From NCBI GenBank assembly GCA_027623675.1, contig JAQBVF010000032.1, positions 1-38,034 on the forward strand: a stretch of DNA of 38,034 bases, written 5' to 3'. The DNA is from Chloroflexota bacterium (lineage in GTDB: Bacteria; Chloroflexota; Dehalococcoidia; Lucifugimonadales; UBA3495). The translations under genes were made by a program, and so were the position numbers. Shown one piece after another: positions 16,639-19,787 of this stretch (position 1 is the stretch's first letter; each line of letters starts with the position of its first letter). The notes below the pieces were generated by a model. The model saw only the letters and a program-made list of their open reading frames with translations, was not told the DNA's origin and made no database searches.

Positions 16639-16716
16639 GCGAAAGATTGATTAAATAAGATCGAAATCGGCATGATCTGACATAGGGCTGGTCTGCCGAT
16701 CTCGTCTGGTTGATGC

Positions 16717-16742
16717 CGGTATTGGGTAGTGGGTCAATTTGA
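16717..16742 (+). repeat. Left target-site duplication plus left terminal inverted repeat
   Basis: cggtattg + ggtagtgggtcaatttga. Confidence 0.92.
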
Positions 16743-16787
16743 ACCGGCGGCGTATAATAAGGAAACACACGACTAGGTGAGGTTGGG

Positions 16788-17003
16788 ATGCCGTACATAA
16801 ACATTGTCCTGAAAAATGGCACGTTGATTCCAGTTGACGATGCCGATGATGTCGCATGGGTGAATGAGTGGTCATACGATGGAGCTACAGGAACACATCG
16901 CATCATTCGGGTCGTCTGCAAACGTGGTGAAGATGTGCGAGCCAAGTTCAATGCTGATGATGTATCTGGGTACACCTGGCATAACGGCAACCGGCTTAGG
17001 TAA
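16788..17003 (+). CDS. 71-aa hypothetical passenger protein
   Basis: GAGG RBS upstream and TATAAT at 16753-16758. Beta-strand-rich sequence, convergent with and slightly overlapping the transposase end. Confidence 0.6.
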   Translation: MPYINIVLKNGTLIPVDDADDVAWVNEWSYDGATGTHRIIRVVCKRGEDVRAKFNADDVSGYTWHNGNRLR

Positions 17004-17823
17004 CTAAGCTAACGATTTCCTCTGCACTCCAAACATGGTCTGCAACGCCAGCGGCCATCGCGGGAGTGGTCAAGGAACCCAGGCTACTGTGAGGGCGTGC
17101 GAAGTTGTACCACATGAAATGCAAGGCTACGGCATGTTCTAGGTTCTCGATCTTCTTGGAGAATCCATTGGTCAATCGGGTGAAACGCCGCATGCTCATT
17201 CTCATGGTCAAGTTTTGGCGTTCGATGAAACTGGTAGATACATGCGCCGGGTCCGGACTGCCCTGGATAACATTGGGCTTGGTTCCTATGCAATCGGCAG
17301 GGCTGTACCGGCGTTGGGTCTCTGTAGGGTCGGCACCATATAACTTGATTAACTGCGCATAGTCAATGTCAGAGCCGAAAGCATCATCAACTGCCGAGAG
17401 ATAGGATTTCAGTCCATCGGTTGTTAGCTGAACATGATGCGACAATCTTCCGGCCAGGTCTGTCATAAGTTCATGGGCGTATCCAGCGTCCCGTAATCCT
17501 ACAAGCCACGACGCAACCAGCTTCGTATCAGCATCCATAGCAACCCACGTCCAAGCGTCTCCGGCGAAGTCTCTCTTATCCTGTGGCACGTTCTTCTGCT
17601 TGGCGTATACAAAGCTCCAAATCTCATCACACTGGATTCGGCGGCAAGTGAGATCGCGTAGGTGTTCATCTTGGTATCGGGAGCAGGCAGTACCCACATC
17701 AACAAGAAGCCGCGTGACCGTACCCTTGGCGGTATCAGTCATGCGGCATGTTGCGCGAATACTATTGCCCTCAACGAGGGTTTTGATGATTTGGGAACGG
17801 CGTTGGATGCTTAGCTTGTTCAT
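16996..17823 (-). CDS. IS1-family DDE transposase (single ORF, N-terminal HTH, no zinc ribbon; ISMhu11-like)
   Basis: HTH LVEGNSIRATCRMT. Catalytic motifs QCDEIWSFV, LTTDG and IERQNLTMRMSMRRFTR. C-terminal YNFARPH...TPAMAAG. Confidence 0.9.
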   Translation of the reverse strand: MNKLSIQRRSQIIKTLVEGNSIRATCRMTDTAKGTVTRLLVDVGTACSRYQDEHLRDLTCRRIQCDEIWSFVYAKQKNVPQDKRDFAGDAWTWVAMDADTKLVASWLVGLRDAGYAHELMTDLAGRLSHHVQLTTDGLKSYLSAVDDAFGSDIDYAQLIKLYGADPTETQRRYSPADCIGTKPNVIQGSPDPAHVSTSFIERQNLTMRMSMRRFTRLTNGFSKKIENLEHAVALHFMWYNFARPHSSLGSLTTPAMAAGVADHVWSAEEIVSLVT

Positions 17824-17826
17824 GCC

Positions 17827-18342
17827 TTAATTATAGGCATTAGCTTTCGCATTGTCAAGCTCTAAAGGGTCATATTCATAGTCCTGGGATACGCCGATTG
17901 GTTCATGTGACAGCCGAGAATCGCCTATGAACTTAAAACGGCCCTGGCCCTGTTTCCCTGGTTCCCAATCTTCGCTATTAGACATTAGGTGGTAGAGATT
18001 GGAATACAAACTTCTACGTTTCGCTTTGGAGCGGCCAGAAGCTTTAATCAGATCAGCCGCGTCAGCGGTCTTAACCCATCCGTCGCCGTGACGGGCCATA
18101 ATTACCAAAGCCTCGTTGTGTGAGGAAGCTTCGGCAATCTTAGATAGCGGAATATCAGGCGCATCAGGGTGTACCAAAGATCGGCCGTATTCGATTGCCT
18201 TCTGGATAGCGTCTAGATTGGCTTTTGCTGTCTCGAAAGCTCTCTGAGCATCTTCCAGGTCCACGGCTGCATCTTCCATCTGTTTTAGAGCGTTCTCTGC
18301 CCATTCTAGGAGTTTGGCCTCGGCTAGGTTATTTGTAGTCAT
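17827..18342 (-). CDS. 171-aa hypothetical passenger protein (N-terminal coiled coil, possible winged-helix C-domain)
   Basis: AAAGGTG RBS-like site, heptad-like N-terminus, and helix/wing pattern in KTADAADLIKASG...LYSNLYHLM...GQGRFKF. Confidence 0.65.
   Translation of the reverse strand: MTTNNLAEAKLLEWAENALKQMEDAAVDLEDAQRAFETAKANLDAIQKAIEYGRSLVHPDAPDIPLSKIAEASSHNEALVIMARHGDGWVKTADAADLIKASGRSKAKRRSLYSNLYHLMSNSEDWEPGKQGQGRFKFIGDSRLSHEPIGVSQDYEYDPLELDNAKANAYN
17830..17858 (-). promoter_or_regulatory. Consensus sigma70-type promoter for the transposase (probably leaderless mRNA)
   Basis: Minus strand reads TTGACA-17 nt-TATAAT-taaggc-ATG. Confidence 0.8.
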
Positions 18343-18431
18343 GTTGTTACACCTTTACCAATCGTACGTACACATCATCAATGATGCGTTGACACCACCA
18401 ACACCTACCTCTGTACAGTGAATGAATCGAG

Positions 18432-18516
18432 CGGAGAGTAGCGGAGTCGGACCGCAACGCTGTGCACGCTCATCGGTTTTTAAGACCGAGTCCCCATCCG
18501 AGGGGCAATACTCTCC
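18432..18516 (-). tRNA. Non-canonical 8/4 tRNA (allo-tRNA-like), anticodon UAA, serine-type body
   Basis: Minus strand: GGAGAGTA-TTG-CCCC(TCGGAT)GGGG-AC-TCGGT(CTTAAAA)ACCGA-17 nt variable arm-GCGG(TCCGACT)CCGC-TACTCTCC-G. This gives an 8-bp acceptor stem, 4-bp T-stem and G discriminator. CCA is not encoded. Confidence 0.8.
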
Positions 18517-18602
18517 ACAAAAGGCCACCGCTGGGGTTATAACCCTAGAAGTCGATTGAACGCCTGCAAGCGTTCGTCAGCAACACGGGGGCCGCACAGA
18601 TA

Positions 18603-18647
18603 ACCGGTGATGAAAGTTGACCGCTCACATCACCGGTCATTATAACA
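18603..18647 (-). promoter_or_regulatory. Extended -10 promoter with adjacent 10-bp inverted repeat, pointing at the allo-tRNA
   Basis: Minus strand TG-T-TATAAT (18647-18639). Inverted repeat accggtgatg (18603-18612) / catcaccggt (18628-18637). Confidence 0.55.
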
Positions 18648-18696
18648 TGACAGTACCTAAGCGGTCCCCCGATAATCGGGAGCGAGGGGGGTAATA

Positions 18697-18849
18697 ATGG
18701 CTAAACCGATTACAGAAAATCCAGTTCTTCGCGGAAAGGCGGCTAAAAAGTTCAAAGAGATGTTTCTCTTAAATACAAAGCCTGATCCGGAAAAAATCAA
18801 ACGTCACAAGGAAGATGTGGAAGTCTTTAGGCAATCTACGGATAGATAG
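18697..18849 (+). CDS. 50-aa small protein, candidate antitoxin of the neighbouring GNAT (absent from the ORF track)
   Basis: GAGGGGGG RBS, then ATG...TAG encoding MAKPITENPVLRGKAAKKFKEMFLLNTKPDPEKIKRHKEDVEVFRQSTDR. Confidence 0.7.
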   Translation: MAKPITENPVLRGKAAKKFKEMFLLNTKPDPEKIKRHKEDVEVFRQSTDR

Positions 18850-18877
18850 ACTAGAATCCACGACTCTCATATGCCCA

Positions 18878-18918
18878 ACATGAAAGAGGGGAGCTATATT
18901 AGCTCCCCTCTTTCATGT
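18878..18918. terminator. Bidirectional terminator-like 19-bp perfect hairpin between the convergent 50-aa ORF and GNAT
   Basis: acatgaaagaggggagcta-tat-tagctcccctctttcatgt. Overlaps the GNAT stop codon. Confidence 0.75.
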
Positions 18919-19431
18919 CTCTGGATATAAATCATAAACCATGAACAAGTGTGTCCCTCCCCCGCCTGGGGGAAAGTTAATAAAACCTTGTGATTCCCAG
19001 AAATCGCGTCCAGGTTTATTATTACGTTCAACGTGAAGTGTTAAGAATTTAACCCCGATTTCGCTTTCGATTGCAGCACCACGAATCCAAGAAAGCATAA
19101 ATTTCCCAATGCCTTGGCGCTGGCTCTGCTCATCAACTCCAAATTGCGCTATCAATACACAAGGTACGTAAGAACGCGTTATTTGTCCTAATCCAAAGCG
19201 GCTTTTCCATGAAGATTCTTCCATTTTGATATTAGACGCGACTAAGGAAGTAAAACCCGCTATCTGCACACCAGAGTGGCATGTCCAAGTCACATTCAAC
19301 CCTAATTCTTGCTGTGCGAATGCATCCTCTTTTAGGAAATCGGAAACATCTTTTTCCCATTCCAAAGAACCGCAACTAAAATTACTCAGATCATGGGAAT
19401 GGGACAGCCGTGTCATCTTAAACAATGACAC
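18913..19431 (-). CDS. GNAT N-acetyltransferase resembling TacT/AtaT-type aminoacyl-tRNA-acetylating toxins
   Basis: HDLSNFSCG...DFLKEDA N-terminus, VPCVLIAQFGVD, acetyl-CoA motif QRQGIG, and LTLHV...FWESQGF. Confidence 0.8.
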   Translation of the reverse strand: MSLFKMTRLSHSHDLSNFSCGSLEWEKDVSDFLKEDAFAQQELGLNVTWTCHSGVQIAGFTSLVASNIKMEESSWKSRFGLGQITRSYVPCVLIAQFGVDEQSQRQGIGKFMLSWIRGAAIESEIGVKFLTLHVERNNKPGRDFWESQGFINFPPGGGGTHLFMVYDLYPET

Positions 19432-19483
19432 GTTACAAGCCCCAAACTCTTTATGTGCTCAGATGGAAGCATTGCAGGGTAAG

Positions 19484-19714
19484 TTACGGTCTATTAGCCC
19501 ACCTAGCTTGTGCAGCCTTTCTAGCCGATGCGCTCCGTTCTTCTGGCGTCATCTTAGCCGCCCTGGCCTTCCCGCCCTTCAACCCGCCTTTCTTACCGCG
19601 TTCTGCCGCGCTGGCGTTCTTGCTCGTGTCAGGTGCCGGTTCGCCGGTAGCTTCCTCGGTAATGAAAGCGGCTAGAGCGTTTACGTCTTTGGGTGGCTTC
19701 TTCTGTTTAGGCAT
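19484..19714 (-). CDS. 76-aa basic small protein with KGG-like motif (histone-H1-like, putative nucleic-acid binding)
   Basis: ERGKKGGLKGGKARAAKMTPEERSASARKAAQARW. Preceded on the minus strand by TTGACA-18 nt-AATAAT-aaggt-ATG. Confidence 0.8.
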   Translation of the reverse strand: MPKQKKPPKDVNALAAFITEEATGEPAPDTSKNASAAERGKKGGLKGGKARAAKMTPEERSASARKAAQARWANRP

Positions 19715-19761
19715 ACCTTATTATTTGCTCACGCATCCGGTGCTGTCAATTAGCTTCGGAC

Positions 19762-19787
19762 TCAAATTGACCCACTACCCGGTATTG
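19762..19787 (+). repeat. Right terminal inverted repeat plus right target-site duplication
   Basis: tcaaattgacccactacc + cggtattg. Confidence 0.92.

Follow-up and report, generated by a model that had tools for sequence, protein, structure and literature searches.

An allo-tRNA(UAA) with a serine-type body as cargo of an IS1-type element in a Chloroflexota genome

Why should an insertion sequence (IS) carry a tRNA gene whose body and anticodon point to different amino acids, and does such a gene serve to read codons at all? The question is raised by a contig of 38,034 nucleotides (JAQBVF010000032.1, positions 1 to 38,034 of the forward strand; hereafter 'the window') from assembly GCA_027623675.1 of a Chloroflexota bacterium (Dehalococcoidia; Lucifugimonadales; UBA3495). 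An earlier note, made from the sequence alone, had seen at positions 18432-18516, on the minus strand and inside an IS element, an allo-tRNA of the 8/4 type with a serine-like body and the leucine anticodon UAA. Allo-tRNAs were defined by an acceptor branch of 12 bp divided 8/4 or 9/3 and not 7/5 (Mukai et al. 2017, PMC5389517). They were detected through their likeness to tRNA-Sec in covariance models; further marks of the class are a long variable arm, G73 or U73, a D arm like that of tRNA-Sec, a longer anticodon stem, and charging that follows identity elements and not the anticodon. We find that the segment is almost certainly a genuine gene of this published class, carried as cargo by a well-defined IS1-type element; what the tRNA does for the element or its host can be answered only in graded terms.

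Detection and fold of the gene agree with each other. ARAGORN, the check that the earlier note had proposed, calls tRNA-Leu(taa) at 18431-18516 of the minus strand, so that the gene is not 'hidden' as had been thought; nor is the gap in which it lies devoid of open reading frames (ORFs), since a mechanical ORF of 57 amino acids without a family match overlaps the gene. When scanned with Rfam, positions 18432-18516 stay below the threshold of the general tRNA model RF00005, and the sole family reached is bacterial tRNA-Sec, RF01852 (47.7 bits, gathering threshold 47; E 1e-6). The tRNA shares with the latter the long acceptor stem and the long variable arm, but its anticodon is UAA and not UCA, its branches are 8/4 and not 8/5, the D arm with long stem and tetraloop as well as the longer anticodon stem of tRNA-Sec are not found in it, and the host has a separate tRNA-Sec. 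The minimum free energy (MFE) fold of the 85 nucleotides is an 8/4 cloverleaf of -35.5 kcal/mol (z = -2.56; equally good folding in 3 of 200 shuffles) comprising an acceptor stem of 8 bp, a D stem of 4 bp with a 6-nt loop, an anticodon stem of 5 bp plus a C-U mismatch, a variable arm with a 5-bp stem and a 5-nt loop, and a T stem of 4 bp; none of the 26 modelled pairs is non-standard, and the drawing of ARAGORN is likewise 8/4. The architecture first read from the sequence (8-bp acceptor, 4-bp T stem, long variable arm and G discriminator) is thus borne out by both programs, and only the D arm, which is indeed present, needs correction from 'short-loop' to the dimensions just given. It also holds that a 7/5 reading would place a U-U mismatch as fifth pair of the T stem; opening the eighth acceptor pair costs 1.3 kcal/mol. 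The discriminator is G73, the bases 3' of it are not CCA, and the T loop reads UCCGACU, with C at position 55 where nearly all tRNAs have U. The anticodon loop CUUAAAA, with U33 and A36-A38, is that of the host tRNA-Leu(UAA) and of all 16 UAA rows in the published table.

These 16 rows, comprising 15 of the 'major' type and one of the 9/3 type, all with G73, are metagenome sequences from groundwater, sediment, soil and soda lakes, with Rifle (groundwater and sediment), the White Oak River (sediment) and Soda Lake among the sites, and are given without genomic context (PMC5389517). The comparison is a reading of the printed rows by eye and not a count made by a tool. The gene is like the 'major' allo-tRNA(UAA) in its 8-bp acceptor stem, 4-bp T stem, G73 and loop CUUAAAA, and in a long variable arm that opens and closes with the same bases in several published rows; several rows, in fact, align with it base for base, with linker, variable-arm ends and anticodon loop in common, and the T stem is identical in two of them. 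Where the sequences differ, pairing is kept by changes on both sides: acceptor pair 4 (G-C/A-U), pair 5 (A-U/G-C), pair 7 (U-A/C-G/G-C) and pair 8 (A-U/G-C), T-stem pair 1 (G-C/A-U), one D-stem pair (C-G/A-U) and the innermost pair of the anticodon stem. The class proposed in the earlier note, serine-type body and UAA anticodon included, is right and matches the published allo-tRNA(UAA) rows.

The host genome (3.07 Mb in 48 contigs, 91% complete) yields 50 ARAGORN tRNA calls, among them its own tRNA-Leu(UAA), tRNA-Leu(CAA) and tRNA-Sec, and holds the allo-tRNA gene in a single copy. Acceptor pairs 1-6 and G73 of the allo-tRNA are identical to those of the host tRNA-Ser(CGA) and tRNA-Ser(GGA), whereas the five tRNA-Leu genes of the host begin with GCCG or GGGG and carry A73 throughout. 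Seryl-tRNA synthetase (SerRS) recognises the long arm, the acceptor stem and G73, and not the anticodon; bacterial leucyl-tRNA synthetase (LeuRS) requires A73. Judged by its sequence, the gene therefore combines a serine-type body with a leucine-type anticodon, and charging with serine is predicted from acceptor stem, G73 and long arm. The anticodon arm differs by a single base from that of the host tRNA-Ser(UGA), as had been noticed before. Descent from tRNA-Ser(UGA) was considered and rejected: the likeness is confined to the anticodon arm, and a search model built on the allo-tRNA (R1) gives no match to tRNA-Ser(UGA); within its own genome R1 matches only the allo-tRNA itself and tRNA-Leu(CAA). 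One further host call, a 77-nt 'tRNA-Ser(gct)' at 18964-19040 of genome contig C2 that has neither long arm nor CCA and lies immediately before a normal tRNA-Ala, is probably a false or degenerate call.

The location inside an IS element, likewise claimed at the outset, is confirmed by ends that are delimited by inverted repeats and a target duplication. The intact element spans 3,055 bp, has perfect 18-bp inverted repeats and an 8-bp target duplication, and is single-copy in the host genome; the island around the allo-tRNA has a GC content of ∼49% compared with 61% for the genome. Read along the minus strand, the order is an 11/12 promoter-like site, the 76-aa protein, a GNAT acetyltransferase, a hairpin, the convergent p50, the tRNA, orf171, a TTGACA-17-TATAAT site and the transposase. 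In window coordinates the features are:

16717..16724, no strand: target-site duplication, copy 1 (CGGTATTG), an 8-bp direct repeat
16725..16742, no strand: terminal inverted repeat at the transposase end, one of a 100% complementary pair; its GGTAGTG end is conserved in relatives
16996..17823, minus: IS1-type DDE transposase, 275 aa in a single ORF with an N-terminal helix-turn-helix (HTH); DDE_Tnp_IS1
17827..18342, minus: orf171, a rare protein with a long helix and a winged-helix-like unit
17830..17858, minus: promoter-like site TTGACA-17-TATAAT, 12/12, just upstream of the transposase; a consensus match only
18432..18516, minus: 8/4 allo-tRNA with anticodon UAA and G73, no CCA encoded; from ARAGORN, Rfam, MFE fold and comparison with published rows
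18639..18647, minus: extended -10-like motif TGTTATAAT, ∼115 nt upstream of the tRNA, seen by eye and absent from the promoter scan list
18697..18849, plus: p50, convergent with GNAT and its conserved partner; same place in 8 of 9 GNAT loci
18878..18918, no strand: perfect 19-bp hairpin between the convergent GNAT and p50, from an inverted-repeat search
18913..19431, minus: GNAT acetyltransferase resembling the TacT/AtaT/KacT toxins, with full-length PDB matches
19484..19714, minus: small basic protein of 76 aa, left-end core gene of the IS family, from profile comparison
19720..19749, minus: promoter-like site, 11/12, just inside the left end; a consensus match
19762..19779, no strand: terminal inverted repeat at the left end, a perfect pair with 16725..16742
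19780..19787, no strand: target-site duplication, copy 2; joint 16715->19779 of the empty site in two runs

Members of the IS1 family have the end motif GGnnnTG and 8-9-bp duplications and include an ISMhu11-type subgroup, as known from ISfinder. The present element resembles the family in its DDE_Tnp_IS1 domain (PF03400, 32.7 bits, cut-off 24.1), its GGTAGTG ends, its 8-bp duplication and the cargo held between its ends, but differs in that (i) one ORF encodes the whole transposase, with no InsA/InsB' frameshift, (ii) a small basic protein is conserved at the left end, and (iii) the transposase scores 60.5 bits with the NCBIfam IS1 equivalog NF033558, under the cut-off of 100. A split transposase interrupted by an in-frame stop was rejected, since the 275-aa ORF is complete, has a start codon of its own and is preceded by the perfect promoter-like site. 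By eye, two palindromes were seen on the minus strand between p50 and the tRNA, at 18603-18637 and 18671-18684 (CCGGTGATG...CATCACCGG and CCCGATTATCGGG, respectively); they could serve as operators or, in the leader of the tRNA, form RNA hairpins.

The insertion seems to be young. In two metagenome runs of one study, both of aquatic source, a contig joins position 16715 to 19779, skipping 3,063 bases, that is, the element and one copy of the duplication, and read depth inside the element is ∼21 compared with ∼50 in the flanks in run X1 and 4-5 compared with ∼10 in run X2. The two sides of the joint measure no more than 18 and 30 letters, and the sequenced genome may itself come from X1; the finding therefore supports a recent insertion that is still polymorphic, but does not prove it. 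Both runs also contain a second form in which 117 bases are skipped within the left-end gene (19588-19706), an in-frame loss of 39 codons, at a depth of 10.9 in X1 and 4.2 in X2. Furthermore, a contig of X2 differs at 17 of 366 bases of the transposase (17222-17587), which indicates a second, diverged IS copy in that sample.

Related elements are widespread. A scan of genome contigs confirmed 593 relatives of the transposase, the closest from a Dehalococcoidales metagenome-assembled genome, and the counts that follow refer to the best 80 of the 593 (58-71% identity, many phyla). The host phylum was sampled as well: of 400 additional genomes, 25 hold the transposase (E <= 1e-40); G272, unpublished and used for no other claim, is among those counted. 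Both ends could be placed at 61 of the 80 loci, giving complete elements of 1,350-4,590 bp; the duplication is a perfect 8/8 in 52 of these, and the terminal repeat GGTAGTGGGTCAgTTTGA is conserved. A small left-end ORF is present in 57 of the 61, and 45 of these 57 match the 76-aa protein after one profile round; hence, the IS core consists of the small protein and the transposase, and the remainder is cargo. Such cargo amounts to 0.5-3.2 kb (loci L013-L092 and L128-L156, with L131 left out) and is mostly made up of defence and toxin-antitoxin (TA) genes: a Pfam scan that covered 148 of 210 cargo ORFs matched NotI and EcoRV restriction enzymes with methylases, SocA/Panacea, HicB, MqsA, PIN and SecB, as well as RelA/SpoT, HTH-Peptidase_M78, SDH-type proteases, STAND NTPases and a dCTP-deaminase-like protein, with many ORFs unmatched. 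At L016, L057, L068, L083 and L086 an ordinary host tRNA gene follows the end of the element after ∼48-84 bp (by subtraction of coordinates; the ends of L068 are poorly supported, with 4 mismatches in the inverted repeats and a duplication of 4/8), and an insertion preference just upstream of tRNA genes could exist.

The host's element is not the only one to carry an irregular tRNA. At its default threshold ARAGORN makes 24 calls in the 80 loci, 13 outside elements, 4 in incomplete elements and 7 within complete ones. All 7 of the latter lie on the strand of the transposase and none on the other, 6 of them 81-354 nt upstream of the transposase; three of the four calls in incomplete elements (L061, L066 and L084) lie 81-179 nt upstream of it. 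With a further 4 irregular tRNAs in 28 additional IS loci (L131 again left out), about one in eight related elements holds an irregular tRNA beside its transposase. The loci are L015, L026, L030, L032, L051, L061, L066, L074, L084, L139, L145, L146 and L150. Long-arm (class-II) bodies are combined with UAA (this element), UAG (L015, L145), CGC (L074), AGG (L139) and UGC (L146), and short bodies with GCU or ACU (L026, L032, L051, L061, L084, L150); bodies and anticodons thus do not match. Short irregular tRNAs with GCU are also present in the published table (PMC5389517). One IS-borne irregular tRNA was called with a 4-base anticodon, and in L015 a second call stands directly behind the first at a lower ARAGORN threshold.

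Overall, the explanation that fits best, and to which we give an even chance, would be that this allo-tRNA(UAA) is cargo of an IS1-type element, is charged by the host SerRS and places some serine at UUA. Transcription would probably start within the element, after which RNase P would process the 5' end of the tRNA, the 3' end would be trimmed back, and a host nucleotidyltransferase would attach CCA; two PF01743 (nucleotidyltransferase head) matches above the Pfam cut-off are candidate CCA-adding enzymes in the host. The host SerRS, being blind to the anticodon, would then charge the tRNA, which would compete with tRNA-Leu(UAA) and tRNA-Leu(CAA) and lead to some serine at UUA and perhaps at UUG. 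Because UUA is rare in the host (2.3 TTA per 1000 codons, 2.5% of the leucine codons), the cost to the cell would be small, and the strongest effect would fall on the element's own UUA-rich genes, the four of which have 10 TTA in 618 codons. That the tRNA is made and serylated appears to us evenly balanced, and meaningful leucine-to-serine decoding in vivo rather doubtful. The only direct evidence of serine at UUA by such a tRNA is the 9/3 allo-tRNA(UAA) of Silvibacterium bohemicum, which inserted serine at UUA in Escherichia coli (Mukai et al. 2017, PMC5389517). It shares anticodon, serine-type identity and class with the present tRNA, but it is 9/3, acidobacterial and was tested from a plasmid in E. 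coli and not in its host. Induction of such tRNAs in E. coli resulted in growth arrest and cell death (same source).

Several observations weigh against this reading, beginning with the codons themselves. The earlier note had inferred that the tRNA could insert serine at UUA, a codon rare in the host but common in AT-rich foreign DNA. A role against such DNA is not supported, and is weakened also by the T loop and the missing CCA described below: the most TTA-rich genes nearby are the element's own, and they use TTA where leucine is invariant. In the transposase, TTA stands at column 158 (leucine in 76 of 80 relatives) and column 273 (74 of 80), besides column 161 (L/I/V) and one variable column; in GNAT it encodes L63, L130 and L168, invariant in 17 of 17 sequences, besides L81 (Leu/Ile) and one variable site. 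Hence, an active serine-inserting UUA reader would harm the element's proteins more than those of the host. A private code for the element's genes was rejected on account of TTA at conserved leucine positions; the cognate codons of other tRNA-bearing elements likewise have their standard meaning. Columns with a fixed rare ATA or TTA codon were not seen in 81 transposase sequences.

The tRNA itself adds to these doubts. CCA is encoded in 47 of the 50 host calls and absent from the allo-tRNA (the other two calls without it are a tRNA-Ser cut by a contig end and the doubtful 77-nt call), and a search for RNase Z in the 91%-complete host genome found none at the cut-off, the best match reaching 25 bits versus 293; maturation is possible, by a route other than the host's usual one. 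The D stem has 4 pairs with mismatches on either side (by eye), as against 5-6 pairs and a tetraloop in most published UAA rows, and yet it remains within the range of the family, one row having the same 4+6 arm. The C55 T loop occurs in none of the 16 published UAA rows, all of which have U55. The loop motif is found 99 times in the table, and the 43 of these rows that were examined (places 1-14 and 61-89) all belong to the allo-tRNA(UAU), one of them, of metatranscriptome source, with a T arm identical to that of our gene; C55 was also seen by eye in the IS-borne tRNAs of L084 and L145. The earlier note was therefore right about the oddity of the loop, although what it took for a possible impairment of this one tRNA is a recurrent variant of the family and not a private lesion. 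The UAU group was inactive as a suppressor in E. coli and occurs in association with transposons and TA loci (Mukai et al. 2017, PMC5389517).

Nor did a closely related gene come to light. BLAST of the allo-tRNA against 400 genomes of the phylum gave only short matches at chance level, and no homologue was found in 117 related IS and GNAT loci or in 150 genomes of the same class. Specifically, R1 gives a single match among 89 loci, the tRNA(UAG) of L015 with 26.5 bits, and none among 28 further IS loci; no IS-borne irregular tRNA is a close homologue by this model. In the 150 class-mates its top 19 matches are all tRNA-Sec, tRNA-Ser or tRNA-Leu genes, with tRNA-Sec best. A strict, purpose-written cloverleaf scanner detected no tRNA other than those called by ARAGORN.

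Several features lean towards a non-decoding or self-directed role, namely C55, the lack of an encoded CCA, a D arm weaker than usual and the dependence of the element on UUA as leucine. A serious alternative, albeit on the unlikely side, is a tRNA-shaped regulatory or structural RNA that does not decode but serves the IS or its toxin-type cargo, as proposed for the UAU group. C55 may point towards such a transposon-linked, possibly non-decoding branch, and with the UAU group the tRNA shares, besides this T loop, the association with transposon and TA genes; the position of the irregular tRNAs relative to the transposase is stereotyped, in the complete elements as well as in three incomplete ones, and four more come from the 28 further loci; and neither an encoded CCA nor an RNase Z at cut-off speaks for ordinary maturation, while a tRNA that did decode UUA would harm the proteins of the element itself. 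On the other hand, the tRNAs of the UAU group have the anticodon UAU, mostly lack positions 9-10 and have destabilised stems, whereas the present tRNA has a canonical anticodon loop, perfect stems and the full set of SerRS-type identity elements, and by its body it belongs with the 'major' UAA tRNAs of the published table, which have canonical T loops. Moreover, anticodons vary from element to element (UAA, UAG, CGC, AGG, UGC, GCU, ACU), as a codon-reading role predicts. Alternatively, a once-active allo-tRNA acquired together with orf171 might have lost its selection and now be decaying or neutral. The single copy in the genome, a sister element (L097) that has the same gene order without tRNA and orf171, the occurrence of the GNAT module without tRNA in 9 of 9 loci, and the same C55, D arm and missing CCA would fit a hitch-hiker of this kind; we consider it improbable, since all modelled pairs are standard, C55 recurs in the family and is not random, and the insertion, being young and still polymorphic, has had little time to decay.

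The least probable reading, in our view very unlikely, is an ordinary tRNA charged with leucine that would help to read the rare UUA codon in the element's UUA-rich genes. The frequency of TTA in these genes compared with the host, and its use at conserved leucine positions, agree with it, as does codon choice in two elements: in this transposase TTA accounts for 4 of 24 leucine codons, where the mean is 0.06 and 1 of 18 relatives matched for the GC content of third codon positions (GC3) is as high, and in L015, whose tRNA has UAG, CTA accounts for 5 of 25 versus 0.05, with 1 of 26 as high. This enrichment in two cases with leucine anticodons is a weak and partly post-hoc hint, however, as the trend fails in L074 (cognate codon unenriched, 6 of 15 relatives as high) and in L139 (cognate codons 0 of 11), and the comparison for GNAT is confounded by GC3. 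A general coupling of anticodon and codon use was accordingly rejected, the four class-II cases dividing into two enriched, one neutral and one without cognate codons (L145 and L146, with incomplete transposases, fall outside the test), and the class-I cases with GCU or ACU show no codon-use trend in the transposase. Supply of leucine is further opposed by G73 in place of the A73 of the host tRNA-Leu genes, by an acceptor stem equal to that of tRNA-Ser, by the insertion of serine and not leucine by a published relative, and by the tRNA-Leu(UAA) that the host already has. If the UUA reader is charged with serine, in turn, it is conceivable, though we regard it as a long shot, that the tRNA acts as the element's own brake, spoiling a share of its transposase and GNAT. 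Such a role would build on UUA at invariant leucines in both proteins and on a UUA content of the transposase above that of the GC3-matched relatives. If this were true, more copies of the element would yield more faulty transposase, that is, a multicopy inhibition based on mistranslation, and, across the family, the irregular tRNAs that about one in eight members carry would likewise be regulatory parts and not chance cargo.

The neighbours of the tRNA have attachments of their own. The best PDB matches of GNAT are toxin acetyltransferases, aligned over the full length (E 8e-6 to 4e-3) and including the N-terminal F-x-C-G motif; KacT is among them, and the other matched codes we take to be TacT and AtaT. 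Toxins of this type act on aminoacyl-tRNA. The resemblance to these type II TA systems ends at the partner: Pfam and family scans of the element's proteins found no DUF1778/RHH antitoxin beside GNAT, and in its place stands the convergent 50-aa protein p50, with the conserved motif MAKPI...P.LRGKAAK.F..., found just downstream of GNAT in 8 of 9 GNAT loci (L093-L100), the ninth being cut off there. Three of the 9 loci have the same IS1-type transposase, L101 has an IS end and the small ORF, and four lie beside IS1595 transposases; GNAT and p50 are thus a conserved module without tRNA that is carried by both IS1-type and IS1595 elements, and may be an undescribed pair of toxin and partner. The idea that the tRNA is the antitoxin or conserved partner of GNAT was rejected, since none of the 9 metagenome GNAT loci has a tRNA-like gene (ARAGORN; Rfam, E <= 0.01), while p50 is present in 8. 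L097 lacks both tRNA and orf171, which suggests that these arrived as an insert of their own of ∼600 bp. Among 5.8 billion proteins, only two distant relatives of orf171 were found (49-50% identity), and a search for viral relatives found none; its structural model, with a predicted local distance difference test (pLDDT) score of 60, has the long helix and winged-helix-like unit listed above, and its look-alikes in the structure atlas are hypothetical proteins, one cluster being 14% HARE-HTH. PADLOC found nothing in the four element proteins.

A real allo-tRNA(UAA), a further member of the published group, is hence present in a well-defined and recently mobile cargo element of the IS1 type. 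Since 2017, allo-tRNAs have been mostly bare metagenome sequences, loosely remarked upon near transposon and TA genes, and we found no work that ties them to a defined IS family in a search that left subscription journals mostly outside. New here is an allo-tRNA placed in a fully delimited and still mobile vehicle, whose relatives across many phyla carry restriction-modification, TA and other defence-type genes. The hosts named by Mukai et al. (2017, PMC5389517) are Clostridia, Proteobacteria and Acidobacteria, a range now extended to a genome of Chloroflexota type. Finally, the element, its tRNA, its transposase and a codon reporter together provide a concrete system for deciding whether such tRNAs serve mistranslation, the control of transposition, or nothing.

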